Origin: a virus | Taxonomy: Duplodnaviria; Heunggongvirae; Uroviricota; Caudoviricetes | Reading direction: 5' to 3' (one strand) | DNA length: 10,819 nt | Virus record (IMG/VR): IMGVR_UViG_2778261301_000013 | Shown here: in pieces, positions 1-10,519 of the stretch | How the letters are laid out: each line of letters opens with the position of its first letter | How positions within the stretch are numbered: the stretch's first letter is position 1 | The notes under the pieces: generated by a model | What the model was told of the DNA's origin: nothing | Database searches by the model: none | Seen by the model: the letters and a program-made list of their open reading frames with translations, nothing else | Translations under genes and position numbers: made by a program

Positions 1-89
1 TTAATGGCCATTGCGGCGGCACCGGGCACCGCCGTTCTGCTGATACGGCTGAGGTTTTCAACGGCCTGCTCAAGACCCTGTATGGCCAT
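1..89 (-). CDS. Z: Tail protein Z-like, N-terminal 29 codons only (gene runs off the window start)
   Basis: Minus-strand ATG at 89..87 translates MAIQGLEQAVENLSRISRTAVPGAAAMAI, matching the N-terminus of lambda gpZ as recalled (MAIKGLEQAVENLSRISKTAVPGAAAMAIN). GGGGGA Shine-Dalgarno-like motif just upstream. Follows FII as in lambda gene order. Truncated by the window edge. Confidence 0.8.
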   Translation of the reverse strand, partial: MAIQGLEQAVENLSRISRTAVPGAAAMAI

Positions 90-100
90 ACATCCCCCTT

Positions 101-454
101 TCAGCGACGACGGCTGGCGGCAGGTGGTTGCCCCCGGTTGAGCCAGAGATAACAACTCCCTCCGTCATCCGGAGAAACACGGTCCACCCAGAACATCTCG
201 CCGTTAATGGTCAGCGTGTCACCACGCCGTACAGCACAAACCGTATCCGTAAGCACAAATAATGACGGGTTACTTCCTTCAATACGGATCCCACTACTGG
301 CAAAACCCAGCGACTCCGGATCGTCAAAAACGCCATGAACCTCGCCGCCACGCTGTGCACCGGAGGTGAACTGCGCACTGATGCCCATCACTTCAACAAT
401 CGTACTGTCCACCCCGGCAAGGGCGGCATCAAAGGCATTCTGAAAATCACGCAT
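101..454 (-). CDS. FII: Head-tail joining protein FII-like (117 aa)
   Basis: Part of six-frame ORF 101..490. Translation from the ATG at 454 (MRDFQNAFDAALAGV...GVFDDPESLGFASSGIRIEGSNPSLFV...FWVDRVSPDDGGSCYLWL) aligns along its length with lambda gpFII as recalled and gives the same length. The ATG at 454 lies 8 nt upstream of the FI stop (447), suggesting translational coupling. The longer ORF start at 490 is not supported by the lambda alignment. Confidence 0.88.
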   Translation of the reverse strand: MRDFQNAFDAALAGVDSTIVEVMGISAQFTSGAQRGGEVHGVFDDPESLGFASSGIRIEGSNPSLFVLTDTVCAVRRGDTLTINGEMFWVDRVSPDDGGSCYLWLNRGQPPAASRRR

Positions 455-821
455 AAACAGCCATTCCACCATCAACGTGTGTTTTTGCATCTGAGGACAT
501 AATCAGAATCACCCGACCAACATCCGCAAGCTCAACGGATTCCCCCGTTTCACCATCAACGCCACAGAGATGGAGGCAGGTCAGAACTCTGATGCGCGTT
601 AACGCGCCGGATGTTTCCTCACGAACATCATGAGCCGCGGTTTCCCGCTCCCGGATATCCATATTCATAACCTGTACATCATCGCCGGATGACTGCATTT
701 CCTCTTCCCATTCTGCCACCCGCTGCGCTATCTCTGCGGCACTCCCGGATATATCCGGCTCACGCCCCAGAATCAGGGCCAGTTCATCAAGCCGTTTCAG
801 ATTTTGCTCTTTCGTTGCCAT
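447..821 (-). CDS. FI: DNA packaging / head assembly protein FI-like (124 aa)
   Basis: Part of ORF 447..869. Start chosen at the ATG at 821 (MATKEQNLKRLDELALILGRE...), preceded by GGGGG about 6 nt upstream and lying after the E-FI hairpin. The N-terminal third resembles lambda gpFI as recalled; the C-terminal part is divergent. Position between E and FII matches lambda synteny. Confidence 0.7.
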   Translation of the reverse strand: MATKEQNLKRLDELALILGREPDISGSAAEIAQRVAEWEEEMQSSGDDVQVMNMDIRERETAAHDVREETSGALTRIRVLTCLHLCGVDGETGESVELADVGRVILIMSSDAKTHVDGGMAVYA

Positions 822-835
822 ATCAGCCCCCTGTG

Positions 836-864
836 AAAAAAGACACGGGGGCATTTCGCCCCCG
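836..864 (-). terminator. Intrinsic-terminator-like GC hairpin plus U-tract between E and FI
   Basis: Minus-strand RNA reads CGGGGGC-GAAAU-GCCCCCG (7 bp GC stem, 5 nt loop; plus-strand 846..864), followed after 4 nt by UUUUUU (plus-strand A-tract 836..841). It sits 9 nt after the E stop codon and about 15 nt before the FI start. Confidence 0.45.
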
Positions 865-872
865 CTCACGGA

Positions 873-1901
873 TTATTTCACCTGTACCACCACAAACTCA
901 TCCGGGTCCGGCAACACCATCAGCGGCGCGGACTGCGTCATGGTAAATTCACGGGCGGGATCCCCTACCGTCAGCCAGTGTTTCGGATAACGGGAAGAGG
1001 CCACCACACCTTCGGACAACGCCTGAGCATCCTGAATGGCACCGTAACAACGGATCCCATCTGCAGCAGTATTCCCCAGAACCAGCATGCCATCTGGAAG
1101 ATAACGTTTTTCGATACCGTCTTCTGCTATATAAGACGTTTTCGCCACCACAATGGCCAGATCGCCGTAATACCCCTTGAAGGACACCACTGCGCCCAGA
1201 TCTTTCACTGCCGTTTCGAGTTGAGAATTTGAACCGCGACGGGTATCCAGTTTTTCGCGGAACAGCTTAAAACCATTCAGAAGACGCCAGACGGTACCGT
1301 CCATAATGGCAATATTCACAAGACCGCTGGCCTGGTCGCAGTAGAGGTCAATATCATGTGTAGGATCGAACGTGTCACGATCCTGTTTTGACCACTCCTT
1401 ACCACCACCCTGAGTGATGTTATTCTTCGTCGACCTGCCAAAATCGACCTCAATTTTCTCGAACTGGTCTCCTTCCATGGTGTATTTGCCATACAACACA
1501 GCATTTACCGCCTGCATTTCTTCCACCTGGACAATCGCGTGCTCTTCCTGTTTGAGGTTATCGGTAATGATACGCAGACGGCGGTAAGCCGGATCATTCA
1601 GTTGAGATGGATCTTCACCAGGAAGGCGCTCAACCGCCTGCTGGTAATTAAATTCGTGTTTCGGCTTGACGTAGCCCGGACGCAACACGCGGGTTTCACC
1701 ACCACGATGACGCAGCACTTTTCCTTCAACAACCGGGGAGACATAGGCCGCCACCGGCGTTTTTCCGGTAATTTTGTCCAGCATCACCTCTTCGGTATGG
1801 AAATTCACCGTACGGCGGAAAAACAGCTCCAGAAACAGCGCACGAAATTTAACTTTTTGTTCGGTATAACCGAGTAACTGGCGGGTCGTAAACAATCCCA
1901 T
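873..1901 (-). CDS. E: Major capsid protein E-like (342 aa)
   Basis: ORF 873..1901 with ATG at 1901 and an AAAGGAA SD-like motif 7 nt upstream. Translation (MGLFTTRQLLGYTEQKVKF...PGYVKPKHE...AIVQVEEMQAV...KLDTRRGSNSQLETAVKDLG...TVGDPAREFTMTQSAPLMVLPDPDEFVVVQ) is collinear with lambda gpE as recalled, with many identical blocks and nearly the same length. Confidence 0.95.
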   Translation of the reverse strand: MGLFTTRQLLGYTEQKVKFRALFLELFFRRTVNFHTEEVMLDKITGKTPVAAYVSPVVEGKVLRHRGGETRVLRPGYVKPKHEFNYQQAVERLPGEDPSQLNDPAYRRLRIITDNLKQEEHAIVQVEEMQAVNAVLYGKYTMEGDQFEKIEVDFGRSTKNNITQGGGKEWSKQDRDTFDPTHDIDLYCDQASGLVNIAIMDGTVWRLLNGFKLFREKLDTRRGSNSQLETAVKDLGAVVSFKGYYGDLAIVVAKTSYIAEDGIEKRYLPDGMLVLGNTAADGIRCYGAIQDAQALSEGVVASSRYPKHWLTVGDPAREFTMTQSAPLMVLPDPDEFVVVQVK

Positions 1902-1930
1902 AAATCAGTTCCTTTCATTCAGAAATCAGT

Positions 1931-1950
1931 CAGGCCACCGCGGTGGCCTG
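1931..1950 (-). other. Perfect 20 bp palindrome (CAGGCCACCG|CGGTGGCCTG) in the D-E intergenic region; potential RNA hairpin
   Basis: Directly visible at 1931..1950 between the D stop (1959) and E start (1901). It would form a 9-10 bp GC-rich stem in the late mRNA. No clean U-tract follows (ACUGAUUUCUG), so it is not a classic intrinsic terminator. Confidence 0.4.
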
Positions 1951-1958
1951 ATAACGTG

Positions 1959-2306
1959 TTACGGCAGCGCCGCGTGACTCAGGGCACTGCCAGCAAAGGC
2001 GTTGGCCTTTTTGTGTTCATCCACACTTTCAGGCCAGTGGATTGCCTCCGTCGCAAAGGTTCCCGACTTGTAATACGTCAGCGCCGTCTCTGTGCCGTCA
2101 AGCGGCAGTACCAGTATGCCAACCGCACTACCGGCTTTCTGTCCGTCCCAGACCACCAGTTTCCCGGTGGCTTCATCCAGCATCAGGGGCGTCAGTGCCG
2201 GTGTTGGCGAGGAAATCCCGCTGCTGCCTGTGGCGGTATGAGCCGGATCATTACCGGCAAAAATACGTACTTCCGCACGCTGTTCAGTGATGGTTTTCGT
2301 CACCAT
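1959..2306 (-). CDS. D: Head decoration protein D-like (115 aa)
   Basis: ORF 1959..2306 with ATG at 2306 and AGGAGGT SD 7 nt upstream. Translation (...NDPAHTATGSSG...TPLMLDEATGKLVVWDGQKAGSAVGILV...YYKSGTF...WPE...FAG) matches lambda gpD blocks (SDPAHTATAPGG, TPLMLDTSSRKLVAWDG, FYKSGTF) as recalled. Confidence 0.92.
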   Translation of the reverse strand: MVTKTITEQRAEVRIFAGNDPAHTATGSSGISSPTPALTPLMLDEATGKLVVWDGQKAGSAVGILVLPLDGTETALTYYKSGTFATEAIHWPESVDEHKKANAFAGSALSHAALP

Positions 2307-2342
2307 ATTGTAAAAACCTCCTATTGATGGTCAGCACTGGCT

Positions 2343-2945
2343 TCATGGCATGGCCATGAGCATTTTCACGTCCGCATCACCATCTGCTGACGTCTGTGGC
2401 ACGCCACCCTGTACCGCTGCCGGTGAATGGTTCGCCATGAAATGTTCAAACATGGCGGTTGTGGATGCAGAGACCGGTTCTGCCTTACCTGATCCCGCAG
2501 CCAGCACAGCCCGGGCGCTCTCCACAGTCATTCCCGGGCAGGCAGCCAGCTGTTCAGCCTGCACCTCAGCCCCTTTTGCCTCATCCAGTGCCATGATCTG
2601 ATCACGGAGTGATGGTCCGGCATCCGCCTGCGGTGAAGCAGCCAGGATCGGGCGGGCTTTTTCCACCGTCATCTCCGGCATCGCCGCCAGTGTTGCCGCC
2701 AGTTGTTCACGACCGTTCGCTTCTTCACACGCCATAATGCGATCGGCTTCACTCTGCGTGGATGCCACCGGCTGCTGCGGTGCCGCCGCGGCCAGAATCG
2801 CCCGGGCCTGTTCAACGCTCATGCCCTGTTGTCCTGCCAGCATCGTGGCAAGCTGTTCACGTCCTTTCGCTTCCTGGCATGTCAGGATCCCCATCACTCG
2901 CTGGTTCTCCTGCGCGGCGGCTTCCGTTGCAGTTAATTGCGGCAT
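2343..2945 (-). CDS. Nu3: Nu3-like scaffolding protein from an in-frame internal start within C (200 aa)
   Basis: In-frame ATG at 2945..2943 (codon 302 of C, MPQLTATEAAAQ...) is preceded by a strong AGGAGG 4 nt upstream (minus-strand GTCAGAGGAGGCACT-ATG). In lambda, Nu3 is made from an internal in-frame start in C at the corresponding place (lambda ...GGRMTKETQ; here ...GGTMPQLTA). Inference from sequence plus lambda precedent. Confidence 0.6.
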   Translation of the reverse strand: MPQLTATEAAAQENQRVMGILTCQEAKGREQLATMLAGQQGMSVEQARAILAAAAPQQPVASTQSEADRIMACEEANGREQLAATLAAMPEMTVEKARPILAASPQADAGPSLRDQIMALDEAKGAEVQAEQLAACPGMTVESARAVLAAGSGKAEPVSASTTAMFEHFMANHSPAAVQGGVPQTSADGDADVKMLMAMP

Positions 2946-3848
2946 AGTGCCTCCTCTGACATTACTGTTCAGCGCCGTGGCCATCACACTGATGGCATCC
3001 GACGCATTGATTAATTCATCCGCCAGCCCGGCCTCAATGCCGGACTGACCTTCAAAAACGGCGGCCTCTGTTCCCGTGACTGCATCAACAGACAGACCGG
3101 TAAACATCGCCACTTTTTCGGCAAACATCCGGCGCGCCGCATCAATCCGCTGCTGCATGTCCTGGCGAACCTCTGCCGGCAACGCTTCAAACTGATTGCC
3201 ATCCACCTTGTGCGCCCCTGAGTAAATCAGCGTGATATCCACACCGGCCTGCGCCAGATGACCGGCATAGCTGACATGGCTCATCATCACGCCAATGGAA
3301 CCGATACGGGATGTCTGGGTAACCAGCCGTCGGGAGCAGGCCGACGCCAGCAGCATGGCTGCAGAACAGGCCGTGTCATTGCACAGTGCCCAGACCGGCT
3401 TCTGCTGACGGAGGCGGTAAATCATGTCAGCGCAGTCAAACGCGCCGGCGGCCTGCCCGCCCGGACTGTCAATGTCCAGCAGTACGCCCCGCACCTGGCT
3501 ATCCGCCATTGCCTGCTGAAGACAGGCGACAATACCGTCATAGCCTGTCATTCCGGAAAATGGCCGCATACCACCCAGCCGGTGCACCAGCGTGCCGGTC
3601 ACCGGCAGTACAGCAATACCGTTCACCACCCTGTAAACACGGGCAGGTCGTTTACCTCCGGCCATGTACTCGTCCGTTTCAGCCAGCATTCCGGGAGCAT
3701 CAAACTGTACCTGCTGTTGTGGTACCGAAAGACTTGCTGCCCCCATCTCGCGCCCGAGCGCGCAAAAGAAAACCCGCGCATAGGCGGGCTCCAGAAGCAG
3801 CGGTTCATTGAATGCTGCGGCAATAATGTGTGAAAGATTACGTCTCAC
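2343..3848 (-). CDS. C: Head maturation protease / minor capsid protein C-like (S49/ClpP-type protease domain with C-terminal scaffold-like region), 501 aa
   Basis: ORF 2343..3848. N-terminal two thirds are collinear with lambda gpC as recalled (AFNEPLLLEPAYARVFFCAL, NGIAVLPVTGTLV, GMTGYDGI, LLDIDSPGG, AGAFDCADMI, KPVWAL, SRRLVTQTSRIGSIGVMM, ITLIYSGAHKVDGN, TEAAVFEGQ...AGLADELIN). The start is GTG at 3848 (no in-frame ATG nearby) and overlaps the end of B by 11 nt. The start codon assignment is less certain than the gene call. Confidence 0.92.
   Translation of the reverse strand: MRRNLSHIIAAAFNEPLLLEPAYARVFFCALGREMGAASLSVPQQQVQFDAPGMLAETDEYMAGGKRPARVYRVVNGIAVLPVTGTLVHRLGGMRPFSGMTGYDGIVACLQQAMADSQVRGVLLDIDSPGGQAAGAFDCADMIYRLRQQKPVWALCNDTACSAAMLLASACSRRLVTQTSRIGSIGVMMSHVSYAGHLAQAGVDITLIYSGAHKVDGNQFEALPAEVRQDMQQRIDAARRMFAEKVAMFTGLSVDAVTGTEAAVFEGQSGIEAGLADELINASDAISVMATALNSNVRGGTMPQLTATEAAAQENQRVMGILTCQEAKGREQLATMLAGQQGMSVEQARAILAAAAPQQPVASTQSEADRIMACEEANGREQLAATLAAMPEMTVEKARPILAASPQADAGPSLRDQIMALDEAKGAEVQAEQLAACPGMTVESARAVLAAGSGKAEPVSASTTAMFEHFMANHSPAAVQGGVPQTSADGDADVKMLMAMP
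2469..2897. repeat. Three tandem in-frame copies of a roughly 47-codon module within the C/Nu3 C-terminal region
   Basis: Protein-level repeats visible in the ORF translation: (1) IL/VMGILTCQEAKGREQLATMLAGQQGMSVEQARAILAAAAPQ, (2) IMACEEANGREQLAATLAAMPEMTVEKARPILAASPQ, (3) IMALDEAKGAEVQAEQLAACPGMTVESARAVLAAGSG. Boundaries approximate. Confidence 0.7.
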
Positions 3849-5430
3849 GTGGTGTTGTCTCCTCTTCCGGCCTGCGACTCTCCGCTATCTGCTGCTGATA
3901 CGCCTGCGCTATCCACACCGGACGTGAGAGTCCGGCTTTTTGCCGCTCAGCAGATTCCCTGACCTGCTGGCGGAAAATGTCCTGATAATCCTCGCCCATC
4001 AGCGCCAGCTCTTTCTCATACGTGCTCAGTCCGGCCTCAATGCGCATCACTGATTCCTGGACTTCCTTGAGCCCGTCAATGGCCATTCTTCCGGCACCAA
4101 TCCACTCTGCCCGTGACCAGGCTGATCGCGCCTGATAAAAATCAAAACGTGCCCGTGGCGGACGAATAATCCCCCGAAGAAGTGCCTCTTCCAGCCAGCA
4201 GGAAAACATCTGCGTGGCCAGCCGGGCCGCAATAAATTTTCGCCGCCCCATAAAATAGCGCCACGACTCATTGGCGGAGGCGCGGGCACTTGAGTAACTG
4301 ACCTTCGAGTAATCACGGGACAACTGTTCGTAGGAAACGCCAAGACCGGCGGCGATATACCGCAGCAGCGCCTGTTCAAGCGCAGAAAATCCATTGTCTG
4401 AATCCTGCGCAGTCTGTAGTTTCAGATCATCACCAGGGAAAAGGTGCGGAATTTTGACACCGCCCAGTGTCACGTTATTCGTGTCATACCAGCTGGAGAA
4501 CTTCTCCAGAATATTAATAAGCGGATTATCCTTCTGCTCCTGTGGCGCGCCGGCGATATATTCAAAGGCCTTTTCGGTATCAAGTTCACTTTCAATCGTC
4601 GCTGCATACATCGCCTTCACTATGGCCGACTGAAGCTGTGTTGCCTGCAGGGAATCGAGCATCTTCAGCCGTTCCATGACGCTGTAAAACTGATTAGCCC
4701 CACGGGTCTGCCCGTCCTCCACCGGCTCGAAAATATGCAGCATGGCCGGACGCCCGGTGGGAAGTTCACGCGGGATCCGTTCCCATCGTCCACTACCAGA
4801 GAACGGAAAATCATCCTCACAGATATGGTACGCGACGGCACGGCCATATCGATCGACCTCCACACCGGCCCGCAGAAAACGGTTCCCCATACCGTGTCCA
4901 GGCGTGTCCACCCGTTTCGGACTCACGGCTTTAAAACGCGTACGGAATAACTGCGTGGTTTCCGTATCCCAGACCGGCTGCACAAAGATTTCGCCGTTAA
5001 ACGCATGAACGCCCACACCTTCACGGATAAATTCCGTGAACGTGCGTTTTCCTTCCACGTCGATCTCGCCAAACATCCCTTCGGCGTATTCCGACCAGGC
5101 CGCCTCCACCTCATCGACAAAGCTTTTTGCTGCGGTCTCCCGCATCCCCAGCCAGCGCCAGTTCGGACGGTAGCTGATCAGAAACATATGCCCGACAATG
5201 TGATCCTTATGCAGAGCCACCGCATTAGCCGCTATTCCGTTATTGCGCACCAGATCATCTGCCCGGGCATTCCCCAGACGCAACGCGGGCAGCAGGGCCG
5301 CATCGGCACTCTGCGCCGGTGGCAACCACTCAGCCATTTGCCCGCCAAATCCTGCACCGCCCCCGTTGTAGCTGAGACTCTCACGAAGCGGAACGCCGTT
5401 CACATCAATCAGGACAGGCGTTCGTTTCAT
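3838..5430 (-). CDS. B: Portal protein B-like (530 aa)
   Basis: ORF 3838..5430 with ATG at 5430, overlapping the W stop as ATGA. Translation is collinear with lambda gpB as recalled (GNARADDLVRNNG, FEPVEDGQTRGAN.FYSVME, LQSAIVKAMYAATIESELDT, LLRYIAAGLGVSYEQLSR, SARASANESW.YFMGRRKF, WIGAGRMAIDGLKEVQE, EAGLSTYEKE) with similar length. Confidence 0.95.
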   Translation of the reverse strand: MKRTPVLIDVNGVPLRESLSYNGGGAGFGGQMAEWLPPAQSADAALLPALRLGNARADDLVRNNGIAANAVALHKDHIVGHMFLISYRPNWRWLGMRETAAKSFVDEVEAAWSEYAEGMFGEIDVEGKRTFTEFIREGVGVHAFNGEIFVQPVWDTETTQLFRTRFKAVSPKRVDTPGHGMGNRFLRAGVEVDRYGRAVAYHICEDDFPFSGSGRWERIPRELPTGRPAMLHIFEPVEDGQTRGANQFYSVMERLKMLDSLQATQLQSAIVKAMYAATIESELDTEKAFEYIAGAPQEQKDNPLINILEKFSSWYDTNNVTLGGVKIPHLFPGDDLKLQTAQDSDNGFSALEQALLRYIAAGLGVSYEQLSRDYSKVSYSSARASANESWRYFMGRRKFIAARLATQMFSCWLEEALLRGIIRPPRARFDFYQARSAWSRAEWIGAGRMAIDGLKEVQESVMRIEAGLSTYEKELALMGEDYQDIFRQQVRESAERQKAGLSRPVWIAQAYQQQIAESRRPEEETTPRET

Positions 5431-5633
5431 AACCTCACTCCCAGCGGACGACGGCGACGCCGGGTTGTCCCCAGTACCGACTCCGCATCATTGATCGCCC
5501 GGTTAAGCTCATCCAGAGAAGCCGCCGTATATTCAATTCTGCGACCATCTTTCTGGACAGACACCACCCGTTTACCGGTTAATAAATCAAGGCGCGCCTG
5601 ACGCAGCGCCTGCAGTTCAGCGACTGTAACCAT
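5427..5633 (-). CDS. W: Head-tail joining / head completion protein W-like (68 aa)
   Basis: ORF 5427..5633 with ATG at 5633 and GGAGGAG SD upstream. Translation ([40 protein letters not shown]...RRRRRP) matches lambda gpW as recalled (same length; TGKRVATVQKDGRRVEFTA). Start overlaps the end of A by 17 nt. Confidence 0.93.
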   Translation of the reverse strand: MVTVAELQALRQARLDLLTGKRVVSVQKDGRRIEYTAASLDELNRAINDAESVLGTTRRRRRPLGVRL

Positions 5634-7545
5634 TCACTCCTCCGGACAGCTTCGCTGCCAGTTCTTTAAGGGTTGGCCGGGTCGTCTCTTCTTCCCGGGA
5701 TTTTGCCAGTACAGCCAGATCAAGCTGCCAGCGTTGCACGGACACACGTAATGCCGCGTAGGCATACACCAGGCAGTCCAGCGCTTCGTTACGCCGCTTT
5801 TTGTTATCCCACAGCAGACGCATCTTTCCTTTTTCCCACTTCTCCACAAGCTCTTCCGCGACCAGTTGCTGCGCCTCTGTCTGCGAAAAAATCTCCGGAT
5901 CATCAGGAAAACGGATGGCATACGACGTGGCTTCATCCACAGGCGTGGGATCGGCTTTCATACGGGCATAGAGAATTTCTTTTGCGGTGTCCGTCCCCAC
6001 TTCACACAGATACACGCCCCGCTGATTGCGGGTTTTTGGCATGGTGATCACCGGCTTGCCATAGACAGATGCGCCTTTTATCGGCAGCACCCGGAAAACA
6101 CCATGTTTTTTTGACCTCTGATAAACGATTTCGCCATCGATCCCCCCGATGTCCCAGCAGACACGAGAAATAGTCATTTCGGTTCCGTCTGCATGGCGGT
6201 ATTTTTTGTTGATCGCCGCATCCACACGTAACAGCGTCTCTTCCTCATCGGGACGCCCCATAATGATGATTTTATCCACCAGAAAGGCTTCCTCTCCCGG
6301 AGCCCATCCCCAGACATACATCTCAAAACGGTTTCGCTGCGAGTCAATGCCCGCCGTCAGATAAACCACCCGGGCAGGCACCGCCGCCGTGTAACGCACA
6401 ACCTTATCCATCAGTACCTGGTGATCGAGTTTTTCGCCCACGGCCTCTTCCCAGGTCTCGCCCAGCGTGGTGTTCACAAAGGTTTTCAGGCCGTTGGGAT
6501 CTTTCAGTGCATCCAGCCAGTCATAGACAATCTGTACCCATGTGGTGAACGGACTGTACGCCGTCCAGATATGGAAAGTGATGGAGCGCGGCGGCGGAAT
6601 TTCATCACCCCGGGCGCTGAAAAACATCAGGCCGTCACGGGTCCACATGCCCGTGTTTTCACAGATCCACCGCCCGTTACTCTGGTCAAGCTCAGACTGA
6701 TGGATCACACAGCCATGATGCTCACAAAGGTAGAAAACACTTTCTGGCTTATTCTTCTCCCACTTAAGACCGAAAGGCGAGGCATCATCGCCAAATTTCA
6801 GATACTGCTCCTCCCCACAGTGCGGACAGGGCACATAAAAACGCATGAAGTGTGCCGACTCGTTAGCGGCTTTTTCGATCTGGCAGGAGCCTTTGATTTT
6901 AGGCGTCGAGCCGCGAATGGATTTTGGCCATACAGAGCCCTCAATACGTTTATCCCCCAGCAGGGTTGGCGAACCCTCTTTTTCAACATCCGGTTCGAAC
7001 GAGGAAAGCTCGTCATAACAGACCACATCCACGGATTTTTCACGGTAGTTTTTTGCTGCCGCACCACCCAGACACCAGAACCCCACACCGGAGGAAAAAC
7101 GCTTCAGGGTGAGCGTATTATCGCGGTGTTTTCTTCCGAACCATGGAGCCAGCTCCAGCAATGCAGGAACATCCCTTATCGTTGGCTCAACATGAGATTT
7201 CATAAAATCTTCAGCAGCTGAGTCCGTGGGCTGAAAAAGAAGGCTGTTGCGTGATTTATGCTCAATAAAATAAGCCTCCACTCCCAGCAACATCTTTGTA
7301 TAACCAACACGGGCAGATTTAATCAGGTTAACCGTGCGAATCAGATCGTTGCCCATACAGTTCATGATGCCAACCTGAAACGGCAGTGTTTCCCACCGCC
7401 CCGGGGTATAAGACGACTCTTTAGGAAGGTAATAATGTTTATTGGCCCACTGAACTGTCGTCAGTGGAACAGGAATAATGAGAGATAAAAGCCCTGTAGC
7501 TATCGCACCGGCTGCATTAGCTGCCTTCTGCGCGTCTGAAATCAT
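5617..7545 (-). CDS. A: Terminase large subunit A-like (642 aa from the ATG at 7545; six-frame ORF extends to 7587)
   Basis: ORF 5617..7587. From [21 protein letters not shown] onward it is collinear with lambda gpA as recalled, including the Walker-type region, [16 protein letters not shown] and the C-terminal nuclease-domain blocks. Start preferred at the ATG at 7545 (MISDAQ...): it gives the lambda-like N-terminal length, has a GGGTGGA SD-like motif upstream, and overlaps the Nu1 3' end by 29 nt as in lambda. The ATG at 7587 has no SD. Confidence 0.95.
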
Positions 7546-8065
7546 CGATCCACCCGCCCACGTTTTCACCGGCCTTAGCTGCAACATTGGAGGCTTTCGC
7601 GATTTCAGTTTTCACCACATCAAGGTGTGATGGTGAAATGTCCGGATATTTACGCTGTAATGTCAACGGCACACGCACAAGTATCCCCGAAATCTCCTGT
7701 GCCACACGTTGCAGAATGAAGGTAAACAGTTCAGTTTCCAGCACTACTCCGTCTTCACGGGCATTTTTCAGTTCCTGCGCATCTGCCTGCGCTTTTGTGA
7801 GCCTGTAGCGTTCATAGTCAATGGTGCCGGGTTGTAAATCTGACTCCGCTGCCGCACGCAAATCGTCCAGTTCTTTGCGGAGCTTTTCGTTTTCGATATC
7901 AGTTTCCCTCTGCGCATACCACTGAATTGCCATGGCAGTATCAAATACAGATTCAATGCCCTTACTACCTTTGGAGGCGCAAGGGAGTCCCTGAGACTGC
8001 CAGCGTTCAATCGTCCGCGGGTCCACGTTGAAAATTTCGGCAAGCCTCTTTTTATTAACCTTCAT
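7517..8065 (-). CDS. Nu1: Terminase small subunit Nu1-like (182 aa)
   Basis: ORF 7517..8065 with ATG at 8065. Translation ([28 protein letters not shown]...[47 protein letters not shown]) is collinear with lambda gpNu1 as recalled (MEVNKKQLADIFGASIRTIQNWQEQGMP...). First gene downstream of cos, as in lambda. Confidence 0.93.
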
Positions 8066-8241
8066 GAAAACAACCCATTATCAAATACAAGGCCCGACAT
8101 GAAAACGCCAGAAAAAGGCATTTTCGGACACTTTCATGTCGGACCTTTACGGATGAAATATTAAAAAAAACAAAAAGTTATATTCGAGAAGTACCGACAC
8201 GATTTTCCCTGAAAAATTTTCATAAATAGTGAAAAACCGCG
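8066..8241. promoter_or_regulatory. cosB-like terminase-binding region between cosN and Nu1, with three candidate small-subunit binding sites and an A/T-rich putative IHF bend site
   Basis: The first 35 nt on the Nu1 side of cosN (minus-strand CGCGGTTTTTCACTATTTATGAAAATTTT) match the lambda left end as recalled, then the sequence diverges. CCGACA occurs at 8094..8099 and 8194..8199 (same orientation, exactly 100 bp apart) with an inverted copy TGTCGG at 8137..8142, mirroring the lambda R1/R2(inverted)/R3 layout but with a different motif. A/T-rich segment with an A8 run at 8146..8190 lies between the distal and middle sites. Confidence 0.65.
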
Positions 8242-8253
8242 AGGTCGCCGCCC
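8242..8253. other. cosN: 12-nt cohesive-end sequence (minus-strand GGGCGGCGACCT)
   Basis: Plus-strand aggtcgccgccc at 8242..8253 is the exact reverse complement of the lambda 12-nt cohesive end GGGCGGCGACCT, flanked by lambda-like sequence on both sides (minus-strand ...GGTTACG|GGGCGGCGACCT|CGCGG...). Confidence 0.85.
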
Positions 8254-8287
8254 CGTAACCTGTCGGATCGCCGGAAAGGACCCACCA
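8254..8287. other. cosQ-like region (phage right-end sequence adjacent to cosN)
   Basis: Minus-strand GGTGGGTCCTTTCCGGCGATCCGACAGGTTACG closely matches the lambda right-end sequence as recalled (GGGTCCTTTCCGGTGATCCGACAGGTTACG), which contains cosQ. Confidence 0.7.
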
Positions 8288-8378
8288 AAAATGATAATGA
8301 TTGTCAAATACGTTTATCACACTGATATTCAGAATCACTACTGAAAGACTCCCTTTGTGGTGCGCGAGGGATGCGCAT

Positions 8379-8405
8379 AAAAAAACCACCAGCAAATGCC
8401 AGTGG
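8379..8405 (-). terminator. Intrinsic terminator candidate downstream of the 134-aa ORF
   Basis: Minus-strand RNA CCACUGGC-AUUU-GCUGGUGG (8 bp stem including two G-U pairs, 4 nt loop; plus-strand 8386..8405) followed immediately by UUUUUUU (plus-strand A7 at 8379..8385). The stem pairs better in the minus-strand transcript than in the plus-strand one. Located about 60 nt after the stop at 8466. Confidence 0.5.
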
Positions 8406-8465
8406 CTAGAGATATTCATTGCGAATAACCATCACAAAACAACTTAACTCGTGAGGGTAGAAATT

Positions 8466-8870
8466 TTACTCGAGGCCAAATTTCTTCTTTAAATAGGCCT
8501 TCGTTAACTCCAGCCCAACATCTTTGATTGTACTCAAAGGGGCATCGCTCATTGACTTTAATTTCTCAAAAACCGTAGGTTCATTTAATGCCTGGGCGAA
8601 TTCTTGTCCCTGCGCAGATAGTCGCACGTCGGTACCCATATCTAGCATATGGCCACAATGGCGCATGTAGCCCAGTTTAGTTATGTCATCCGTTATTAGA
8701 TCTTTATTACTGATATAACCTTGCTCAATAAGAAGTAGATAATGAAACATCCCTTCATTCGAGCAGATATCGTACCCCGCATTAGCTAAGTCTTTTGTAG
8801 ATATAAAGGGAGTTTTCGCTTTCAAAAATACCTCAAGCATCCCCTTCATGTATTCTAAATTTTTAACCAC
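8466..8870 (-). CDS. Hypothetical protein, 134 aa, in AT-rich accessory block; no family recognised
   Basis: ORF 8466..8870. GTG start at 8870 preceded by a near-perfect SD (minus-strand TAAGGAGGTTTTT-GTG). Translation MVKNLEYMKGMLEVFLKAKTPFISTKDLANAGYDICSNEGMFHYLLLIEQGYISNKDL... The N-terminal half has a helix-turn-helix-like / winged-helix-like pattern, a weak impression only. Own candidate promoter and terminator. Confidence 0.65.
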   Translation of the reverse strand: MVKNLEYMKGMLEVFLKAKTPFISTKDLANAGYDICSNEGMFHYLLLIEQGYISNKDLITDDITKLGYMRHCGHMLDMGTDVRLSAQGQEFAQALNEPTVFEKLKSMSDAPLSTIKDVGLELTKAYLKKKFGLE

Positions 8871-9005: not shown

Positions 9006-9230
9006 TTAGACATTAGATGGCGCTTTGTCAGTATAGACCCGGTACGCCCTGACAAACATCCCGTTACATTCAGAGTCCGCCTTGATATACGCCAATTCGT
9101 AACCCCGATGCTTTAGCTCTTCACGAGCTCTTTTCTCTTCCTTAGCCATGAAGTTAAGATCTTTAATTTCTGAGTAGGTATATGTTCCCACTATAAAATC
9201 TCTGCCTGGCCGTCCATTTATCAGCTCCAT
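9006..9230 (-). CDS. Hypothetical small protein, 74 aa (possible N-terminal extension to 9365 giving 119 aa); no family recognised
   Basis: Six-frame ORF 9006..9365 begins with GTG with no SD. The internal ATG at 9230 is preceded by GGGAGGA (minus-strand TTTTTGGGAGGACAC-ATG), so the 74-aa product MELINGRPGRDFIVGTYTYSEIKDLNFMAKEEKRAREELKHRGYELAYIKADSECNGMFVRAYRVYTDKAPSNV is preferred. The upstream in-frame region resembles sequence found after the stop of the 93-aa gene, so it may be a gene remnant. Confidence 0.5.
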   Translation of the reverse strand: MELINGRPGRDFIVGTYTYSEIKDLNFMAKEEKRAREELKHRGYELAYIKADSECNGMFVRAYRVYTDKAPSNV

Positions 9231-9247
9231 GTGTCCTCCCAAAAAGT

Positions 9248-9323
9248 TGGTAGTCAGAACATACCATGCTAAGCGAGGTGAAAGCACCTTTATCAAGCCC
9301 CCCGCAGATAGACTTTGTAATGG
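9248..9323. repeat. Diverged direct repeat, copy A (partner at 9681..9743)
   Basis: Plus-strand tggtagtcagaacatacc...ttatcaagccccccgcagatagactttgtaatgg aligns with copy B, tggtggcccagaataaattccggtttcattatcaagcccacccgtaaatgggctttgtaatgg. Shared blocks are TGGTNG..CAGAA, TTATCAAGCCC and CTTTGTAATGG; copy A carries an extra roughly 23 bp and one extra C in the C-run (9298..9303). Confidence 0.6.
9258..9266 (-). promoter_or_regulatory. Candidate extended -10 promoter element (minus-strand TGGTATGTT) for the 74-aa ORF
   Basis: TGnTATGTT on the minus strand about 28 nt upstream of the ATG at 9230, leaving room for a short leader containing the GGGAGGA SD. No convincing -35. Pattern-based only. Confidence 0.25.
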
Positions 9324-9680
9324 AGAGTCATTGAGTAGTTCTCGTAATTCTTTGATTTTCCGCACACTCGTGCAGAAGGAGTTCCCCGTCGGGCTACGGT
9401 CATGGTTAATGCGGGAATACAGCGACGATACAGCGCATGATGTGTCAGGCTTGAATACCTTTATCCGTTAAAAGGGATATCAGTTAAGTTACACCGTGTA
9501 GGGTATAAGCCATTGTCGAGACCACTCATTGAATGGCCTCTGCAATAACCGATGTCTTTCCATCAGTCCGCCACCACAAAGAATCTTTTTTGCCTTAAGG
9601 CAGGAGCTTCATCTTTCAGTGGCTGCCAGTGTTATTTCCCCACTTACTGGCTTGGGTTGTTTCGTGGTACTGCCGTTAAC

Positions 9681-9743: not shown

Positions 9744-10025
9744 CTACTTCACTTTTGCTTTTGCTTTTGCTTTTGCTTTTGCTTCCGCTCGCTTACGCCG
9801 GCGCTCTTCTTTCCTCTCGGCTTTTGCCATGTCCATGAATGCCTGCATGATCGAGTTCCGCATCATGTAGCTAACAAAGTGATGATTGACACAGCCGTTG
9901 AGGCGCAGCTGCTCGCCAAACTCATCCACCGAGGCCAATGCTTCCATCATGCCCTTCTCGCCTTTCATGAACTCTGAGAAGTCGCGCCCCGCTCTGGAGG
10001 CGCATTCAATGACACGATCACTCAT
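9744..10025 (-). CDS. Hypothetical protein, 93 aa, with a strongly basic C-terminal tail ending in an (Ala-Lys)n repeat
   Basis: ORF 9744..10025. Its ATG at 10025 overlaps the stop of the upstream KilA-N-like ORF as ATGA (10022..10025), suggesting translational coupling. Translation MSDRVIECASRAGRDFSEFMKGEKGMMEALASVDEFGEQLRLNGCVNHHFVSYMMRNSIMQAFMDMAKAERKEERRRKRAEAKAKAKAKAKVK. No family recognised with confidence. Confidence 0.65.
   Translation of the reverse strand: MSDRVIECASRAGRDFSEFMKGEKGMMEALASVDEFGEQLRLNGCVNHHFVSYMMRNSIMQAFMDMAKAERKEERRRKRAEAKAKAKAKAKVK
9753..9782. repeat. Hexanucleotide simple sequence repeat (TTTTGC)5 on the plus strand = (GCAAAA)5 on the coding strand, encoding AKAKAKAKAK
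   Basis: Five perfect tandem hexamers visible at 9753..9782, followed by a degenerate sixth (ttccgc). Lies within the 3' end of the 93-aa ORF, in frame. Confidence 0.9.
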
Positions 10026-10519
10026 CCCGGAAGCCCGGGGATCGTAATCTGCAGCTGGTTAGCCAGGGAGTTAATCTCAGCGACCAACACTGGCTTCGTA
10101 TAGCGCCATGCTGCCAGCCCTTGTCCGCAGAAGCTCGCCATGTCTTTCTTCTGGTCAAACTCATGACATTTCATGTTGAGCTGCGCACTTAAGCTGTTGC
10201 GATGCTGAAGTTCTCCGGTGAAGTAGTCATCGAGGACTTTATAGGCCGCGTACTTGAACCCGGGGTTTAACCAAGCCGCATAATCGTAAGCAACAAACTT
10301 CCCGCCATATGTTCCACCGTGTACACCGCGCTCAGTAAAAACCACAGATTCGTGGTTTTTCTCCAGCTCGGCTAAGAACTCTTTGGTCTGCTTGTTTCGC
10401 AGGTAGTGGTAAGGCGATTCAGATTCACTTTTACCACTGGCTTTCCACATATCAGTGAGGCAGATCATGCCATCTTCACCGATACGAATTGGTTGATTGA
10501 AGAGGGTTAATGATTTCAT
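10022..10519 (-). CDS. KilA-N domain-containing protein (165 aa), putative DNA-binding
   Basis: ORF 10022..10519 with ATG at 10519. Translation MKSLTLFNQPIRIGEDGMICLTDMWKASGKSESESPYHYLRNKQTKEFLAELEKN...GVHGGTYGGKFVAYDYAAWLNPGFKYAAY shows the characteristic KilA-N/APSES-type pattern (hydrophobic run + TD..KA.GK, then TKEFL, then GT....VA.DYA.WL.P.F). Assigned from recalled family features, not a search. Confidence 0.7.
   Translation of the reverse strand: MKSLTLFNQPIRIGEDGMICLTDMWKASGKSESESPYHYLRNKQTKEFLAELEKNHESVVFTERGVHGGTYGGKFVAYDYAAWLNPGFKYAAYKVLDDYFTGELQHRNSLSAQLNMKCHEFDQKKDMASFCGQGLAAWRYTKPVLVAEINSLANQLQITIPGLPG

Follow-up and report, generated by a model that had tools for sequence, protein, structure and literature searches.

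The triplicated scaffold module of a phage 21-type head protease gene

The viral record IMGVR_UViG_2778261301_000013 (Caudoviricetes) comprises a stretch of 10,819 nucleotides, referred to here as the window, which contains a lambda-type head operon and, within it, a gene for a prohead protease whose C-terminal part carries three consecutive in-frame copies of a module of about 45 residues. We identify this gene as the phage 21-type allele of lambda C/Nu3 (genes 5 and 6 of phage 21), and its repeats as the Tri boxes already known from that phage. The copies are old, and each is predicted to be a small folded unit. We hold this account of identity, evolutionary history and predicted fold with good confidence. 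As a discovery it carries little weight, the phage 21 head operon being a textbook one and its triplication on record in GenBank from the early 1990s onwards. Of a scaffold that is reportedly disordered for the most part, the module appears to be the sole confidently foldable piece, and natural variants with one, two, three or four copies beside closely related capsid proteins offer a ready series for studying the effects of scaffold valency and length on lambda-type procapsid assembly.

The gene and its three repeats

The encoded 501-residue protein contains a Peptidase_S49 domain (PF01343, amino acids (aa) 146-293, E 1.5e-34), and phrog_53, 'head maturation protease', spans its whole length (1.6e-228). 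It also matches the SppA structures 3rst and 4kwb at about 1e-16 (phmmer against Bacillus subtilis SppA 3rst, 1.5e-16), as well as TIGR00706 at 3.5e-31, which is under the curated cut-off of that model. The gene lies between the portal gene (B) and the D and E homologs in an operon that has the lambda-type order Nu1-A-W-B-C/Nu3-D-E-FI-FII. Domain, profile and position together identify it, on sequence grounds, as a lambda C/Nu3 homolog with its repeats inside the Nu3-like part, which agrees with a preliminary description of this DNA. Lambda C/Nu3 shares with it the operon position, the S49 domain (about 54% identical over aa 3-346), the internal Shine-Dalgarno-ATG arrangement and a module (AENSRIMGILNCEEAHGREEQARVLAETPGMTVKTARRILAAAPQ) followed by a similar C-terminal tail of about 36-45 aa.

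The allele is that of phage 21. The window protein and phage 21 gp5 are identical at 497 of 501 positions without a gap (the four substitutions, window residue first, are F249Y, A373V, V429A and P484A), and the complete phage 21 genome, OL657228.1, matches the window at 99.5% identity over positions 1-8253 of both. A related four-copy protein, used as a tblastn query against the phage collection, led to the GenBank entry M81255.1, 'Bacteriophage 21 head gene operon', in which gene 6 bears three repeat regions, the Tri1 box, Tri box and Tri3 box, with the note 'function unknown; putative'. When translated, these are the same segments of gp5 as the three copies in the window (Table 1). In both records phage 21 has the same nested gene 6 start and the same ribosome-binding site (RBS) as the window, and its three boxes fall at the same residues. 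The triplication noted in the preliminary description is therefore correct and already known: it does distinguish the window from lambda, with three copies in place of one, but it belongs to an annotated phage 21 gp5/gp6 allele. Searches on Nu3/gpNu3, S49 scaffolds and phage 21 in the open-access literature yielded no discussion of the repeats, the original head-gene paper being outside that scope.

How strong is the case for three copies? The motif reads VMGILTCQEAKGREQLATMLAGQQGMSVEQARAILAAA from aa 318 in copy 1, IMACEEANGREQLAATLAAMPEMTVEKARPILAA from aa 371 in copy 2 and IMALDEAKGAEVQAEQLAACPGMTVESARAVLAA from aa 418 in copy 3, so that the starts are 53 and then 47 residues apart; the span first reported, 2469-2897, corresponds to aa 318-460. 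Alignment of the copies gives 16 invariant columns. Each copy retains the near-invariant residues of the family (I, E-A-x-G-R/x-E, A, A, A, L), except that in copy 3 the near-invariant GRE is replaced by GAE. Pairwise BLOSUM62 local scores between the copies are 101, 84 and 96, compared with a mean of about 25, a standard deviation of about 5 and a maximum of 54 among composition-preserving shuffles; in 2000 shuffles the observed scores were never attained (z = 12-15). Three PHROG profiles with one module copy each, phrog_8399 ('head scaffolding protein'), phrog_17040 and phrog_8940, match the C-terminal part in three separate stretches each, and this evidence is independent of the hidden Markov model (HMM) that we built from the three copies. 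The HMM itself finds three copies in the window protein and in phage D2, one in phi80 (aa 365-408, independent E-value 1.3e-18) and exactly one in lambda C (aa 357-402, independent E-value 8e-18). The single lambda copy had been claimed in the preliminary description, and the motif quoted there proved right letter for letter. No Pfam or NCBIfam model covers the module; the PHROG profiles alone do.

The repeat is a feature of the protein and is not detectable as a tandem repeat in the DNA. Tandem Repeats Finder at a minimum score of 30 returned no rows, and the sole recurring DNA word is one of 12 nt, which occurs three times at spacings of 153 and 150 nt.

The repeats also lie within a predicted nested, in-frame scaffold gene. 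Its start codon is the ATG at 2943-2945 (Met302), and the predicted product begins MPQLTAT; the start of lambda Nu3 is equivalent, AGGAGG-N4-ATG. Both M81255 and OL657228 annotate the RBS and the nested gene from MPQLTAT, as 'gene 6' or 'scaffolding protein'. Initiation at Met302 should yield a free scaffold protein of 200 aa. Further internal starts ahead of copies 2 and 3, which would give scaffolds of differing valency, were considered and rejected, there being no Shine-Dalgarno sequence upstream of Met372 or Met419 on reading the sequence. On the opposite strand, antisense to the scaffold gene, OL657228 annotates CII sites at two TTGYN6TTGY matches (2693-2706 and 2927-2940, plus strand). 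These are probably mere pattern-match annotations, because the count of such matches is at chance level (2 observed, 2.27 expected).

Age and copy number of the module

Over an ungapped core of 37 codons the copies are 51-57% identical to each other in amino acids, 57-64% identical in nucleotides and 32-41% identical at third positions. Each copy has thus been conserved as protein while its synonymous sites became nearly randomised, with third positions near saturation. The low third-position identity and the lack of a DNA tandem repeat mark the repeat as old and visible mainly in the protein; the three copies arose by ancient in-frame duplications.

A neighbour-joining tree of the units shows how they are related. 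In every multi-copy protein the first unit clusters with the single unit of lambda and phi80, which identifies copy 1 as the ortholog of the lambda copy. The additional units stand apart in a derived clade whose first helix is three residues shorter; there, copy 2 of the Escherichia coli lineage is orthologous to copy 2 of the Salmonella lineage, and the same holds for copy 3. The Salmonella prophage Gifsy-1 encodes a lambda gpC homolog, STM2605, with three modules (aa 313-359, 362-406 and 409-451), each positionally orthologous to one in the window; it differs in that its copy 3 retains the canonical GRE and its tail is slightly longer. Related Salmonella fragments, which are not Gifsy-1 itself, share about 60% identity with the window over the scaffold part. 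In the same tree the module has duplicated independently in two distant standalone scaffold-like proteins (P0106 and P0199).

Single-copy proteins predominate in the family. A profile of the three units had 490 matches at E<=1e-3 among 1.84 billion representative proteins. A rebuilt, broader HMM counted one copy in 134 of 143 representatives, two in 5 and three in 3; among full-length representatives (380 aa or more), 54 of 55 have one copy and 1 of 55 has three. These full-length statistics come from the representative search, whereas the copy-number variants described below come mostly from fragment sequences found in a homolog search with the scaffold part.

One variant is a four-copy E. 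coli scaffold (P0027) in which copies 2-4 are nearly identical to each other. In its locus (contig ABNWJB010000046.1, 1-6042) 21-like D, E, FI and FII genes adjoin, and the E protein is 83% identical to that of the window. Myovirus-type baseplate genes (GPW_gp25, Baseplate_J_N) follow on this contig in place of lambda-type tail genes. Another variant (P0022) has two copies with a clean copy 1/copy 2 hybrid junction, and four more (P0016, P0018, P0008 and P0011) have in-frame deletions that remove all or part of copy 2. Such two-copy forms are rare, with 1-3 member sequences, and may derive from defective prophages. The shortened derivatives look like products of unequal recombination, although assembly errors are also possible. 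Since a hybrid junction and in-frame deletions are what unequal recombination between copies is expected to produce, this process would account for the changes in copy number, which is 1, 2, 3 or 4 among the relatives. A further Gifsy-type sequence (P0164, 258 aa) shows systematic replacement of Ala, Thr, Ser, Pro, Arg and His by Val, Ile/Met, Phe/Leu, Leu, Cys/Trp and Tyr. Such substitutions fit a wholesale C-to-T change in the DNA, and the sequence probably stems from a dataset of converted or damaged DNA and is not a real protein.

The three-copy scaffold is common in E. coli. At an identity of 90% or more, 21-type scaffold DNA (window 2343-3000) is present in 1870 of 5426 complete E. coli genomes, about a third, at 2922 places; the lambda-type single-copy Nu3 DNA is in 3222 E. 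coli genomes.

Architecture, predicted fold and proposed function

The extra modules come with a change in what precedes them. Lambda has one module behind a low-complexity linker of about 51 residues, and the window has three behind 12 residues. When 55 single-copy full-length proteins were compared with two three-copy proteins, the linker between the end of the protease and the first module had a median of 51 aa (interquartile range (IQR) 38-66) in the former and was 12 aa in the latter. The tail after the last module was similar, with a median of 48 aa (IQR 43-52) as against 44-45 aa, and the whole C-terminal extension had a median of 143 aa (range 82-278) as against 201-204 aa. With a linker of 12 aa in place of a median of 51 aa and with tails alike, the extra modules therefore partly stand in for the linker, while the length of the tail is conserved.

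The scaffold part also travels with its capsid protein. In Escherichia phage D2 (OM475427.1) the C protein (1486-3003) is a chimera, with residues 1-107 identical to lambda C and the rest of the 21 type with three Tri boxes, which indicates a recombination joint inside the protease gene. The D2 E protein is 99% identical to that of the window and its D homolog has the same length of 115 aa, so that a 21-type Nu3 is paired with a 21-type E despite the lambda-type start of C. The window E is 61% identical to lambda E over a truncated lambda E copy, and it is essentially as long as lambda E, the truncated copy alone having been compared. The phage records examined with this allele are lambda-sized (42.9-50.1 kb). 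The preliminary description had suggested that the triplication could alter capsid assembly; nothing in these comparisons indicates a different capsid geometry or an altered capsid.

A model of the whole 199-aa scaffold, made with AlphaFold from a 20-sequence alignment, was poor (predicted local distance difference test score (pLDDT) 51.7) and was used for its secondary-structure pattern alone. It has helices in the pattern short-medium-medium three times, once per copy, and two low-confidence helices in the C-terminal tail. The AlphaFold2 model of a single module, from a 106-sequence alignment, was better, with a pLDDT of 82.7 and a predicted template modelling score of 0.60. Its helices span residues 2-10, 19-26 and 33-42, with the near-invariant E-A-K-G-R-E between helices 1 and 2, and the module is thus predicted to be a compact three-helix bundle. 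A sequence search of the PDB found no solved structure for the module, and a Foldseek search of the PDB with the model found nothing significant. In a library of predicted viral structures the best matches were the C-termini of S49 proteases from Salmonella phage 37 and Synechococcus virus S-ESS1 (template modelling scores 0.77-0.83). Scores against staphylococcal protein A and UBA three-helix bundles were too low to show homology, the likeness being generic for bundles of about 45 residues. A profile of the whole scaffold matched de novo designed tandem-repeat proteins (9rar, 8s6p and others) at E about 2e-6, its other matches being weak noise. We rejected these designed proteins as relatives: the matches arise from the repeated G-V-S-L-EQA-x-x-IL-x-x-AA helix starts and reflect convergent helix capping and composition, not homology.

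What might the modules do? On the generally accepted view of lambda, the protease is drawn into the procapsid by co-assembly because it carries the same C-terminus as the scaffold. In its full-length form the product of the window gene combines an S49 serine protease with a scaffold domain. Each module would fold on its own into a three-helix bundle, forming the chief folded part of a scaffold that is flexible elsewhere, and would mediate protein-protein interactions, either between scaffold molecules or with the major capsid protein on its inner face; on the protease, this module would carry the enzyme into the procapsid. Two-hybrid data from lambda include Nu3-Nu3, Nu3-C and Nu3-E interactions (PMC3224144). 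Three modules on a 12-residue linker, in place of one on a disordered linker of about 51 residues, would make the scaffold longer and multivalent and match it to the 21-type capsid protein, with capsid size unchanged. Medina and colleagues are reported to have found, in 2011, that lambda Nu3 is partly disordered and helical, unfolds cooperatively and dimerises weakly; such behaviour would be in keeping with a single small folded module amid flexible sequence. We offer this mechanism of interaction and multivalency tentatively, as a reading that falls somewhat short of an even chance.

The scaffolds of P22 and phi29 offer a parallel. In P22 gp8 and phi29 gp7 a small helix-turn-helix element within a largely flexible scaffold contacts the N-arm of the capsid protein (PMC11922011). 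The likeness is one of functional analogy alone, since these scaffolds are not fused to a protease, and their capsid-binding helix-turn-helix has no sequence or fold match to the module. Neither scaffold is known to carry tandem copies of the element.

A bolder version of the interaction mechanism takes the Tri boxes as autonomous three-helix-bundle binding modules whose number, from 1 to 4, is traded off against the length of the preceding disordered linker, tuning the reach and valency of the scaffold to the allele of the capsid protein. We think this rather unlikely as it stands; if it were true, copy number would be a simple and evolvable control on scaffold-capsid avidity in phages with S49 protease-scaffold fusions.

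Are the copies binding units at all, or only a structured spacer? This is the main rival, and we judge it possible and on the doubtful side. The modules would set the length or volume of the scaffold, with a copy number that is near neutral, and the tail would be the real capsid-binding element. Extra copies would take the place of the disordered linker in lambda, and their exact number would drift by unequal recombination. Several of the observations above speak for a spacer and weigh against binding by the modules: the linker falls from about 51 to 12 aa as copies go from one to three; the extension of 201-204 aa falls within the single-copy range of 82-278 aa; tail length, with its narrow IQR, is the most conserved feature; close relatives have 1, 2, 3 or 4 copies; and the four-copy form adjoins an E protein so similar to that of the window. 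However, the near-invariant residues have been kept in each copy despite nearly saturated synonymous sites, which a pure spacer would not need, and virtually every relative has the module, enterobacterial phages and a cyanophage alike. The two-copy forms, moreover, are few and possibly of defective origin.

We consider it improbable that the module is a repeated protease-recognition cassette, with an S49 cleavage site in each copy (for example in the EAKGRE loop or at the AAAP end), such that triplication would make the scaffold break up and leave the procapsid faster. In its favour, Table 2 of PMC3224144 gives Nu3 as a probable target of degradation by C ahead of DNA packaging, and the most conserved stretch of the module is a loop between helices 1 and 2. 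Yet a three-helix bundle, once folded, is cut poorly by proteases, the conservation covers all three helices and not one site, and no cleavage-site data for the family were found in the accessible literature. Weakest by far, to the point of being negligible, is the explanation that the repeats are a compositional artefact, a chance similarity in an alanine-rich, low-complexity, disordered region: the region is indeed Ala/Gln/Glu-rich with 62% GC, lacks a detectable DNA tandem repeat and resembles designed helical repeat proteins in its profile matches, but the shuffles fall far below the observed scores, the independent PHROG profiles match three times, the copies keep position-specific orthology across genera, and the same repeats were annotated independently in M81255.

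Other features of the window

The protease and scaffold features and the other head genes are listed in Table 1.

Table 1. Features of the head operon and of the C/Nu3 gene in the window
Feature	Position	Strand	Basis
Nu1	7517-8065	minus	Pfam Phage_Nu1
Large terminase (A)	5617-7587	minus	Open reading frame (ORF)
W-sized ORF	5427-5633	minus	ORF
Portal (B)	3838-5430	minus	ORF
Prohead protease/scaffold fusion gene (lambda C homolog, phage 21 gene 5)	2343..3848	minus	ORF, 501 aa + stop codon
S49 (SppA-like) peptidase domain, aa 146-293, Ser162 in CSAA motif	2970..3413	minus	PF01343
Shine-Dalgarno GAGGAGG within C frame, 4 nt before internal ATG	2950..2956	minus	Sequence reading
Predicted nested in-frame scaffold gene (lambda Nu3 homolog, phage 21 gene 6), Met302-Pro501, 200 aa	2343..2945	minus	M81255/OL657228 annotation
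Repeat copy 1, aa 313-365, longer first helix QENQRVMGIL (Tri1 core about 2775-2879)	2754..2912	minus	M81255 Tri1 box, gp5 aa 324-358
Repeat copy 2, aa 366-412 (Tri core 2628-2738)	2613..2753	minus	M81255 Tri box, gp5 aa 371-407
Repeat copy 3, aa 413-460 (Tri3 core 2484-2597)	2469..2612	minus	M81255 Tri3 box, gp5 aa 418-455
C-terminal tail, aa 461-501 (…AMFEHFMANHSP…DADVKMLMAMP)	2346..2468	minus	Length conserved in family
D homolog, 115 aa	1959-2306	minus	Pfam HDPD
E homolog (major capsid protein)	873-1901	minus	Comparison with lambda E
FI	447-869	minus	Pfam Packaging_FI
FII	101-490	minus	Pfam Phage_attach

The active site of the protease may depart from that of SppA, in which the catalytic residues are a Ser-Lys dyad. 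In the phmmer alignment with B. subtilis SppA 3rst, Ser162 falls in the MAASGG column. The column of the lysine in the SppA motif IKSGAH is occupied by Tyr209 (3222-3224, minus strand), and the motif HKVDG supplies a lysine, Lys214 (3207-3209, minus strand), five residues downstream; the situation in lambda C is identical. Because a tyrosine fills the SppA lysine column in both proteins, the general base of lambda-type S49 head proteases may be positioned otherwise than in SppA. Three plus-strand ORFs (2350-2601, 2703-2936 and 2737-3048) are antisense to this strongly supported gene and were treated as spurious.

Identity to the phage 21 genome stops near window position 8253, which we take to be cos, and the DNA beyond is unrelated to it, except at one further place in that record. 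The window copy is probably a prophage, because the window continues past the end of this identity. The 1.3 kb or so that follow 8253 are AT-richer, with 41-45% GC compared with 50-62% in the head genes. Three minus-strand ORFs in the region (8147-8419, 8466-8870 and 9006-9365) are without a Pfam match. Further along, an ORF of 93 aa with a Lys/Ala-rich tail occupies 9744-10025, and a KilA-N/ORF11CD3 protein is encoded at 10022-10519.
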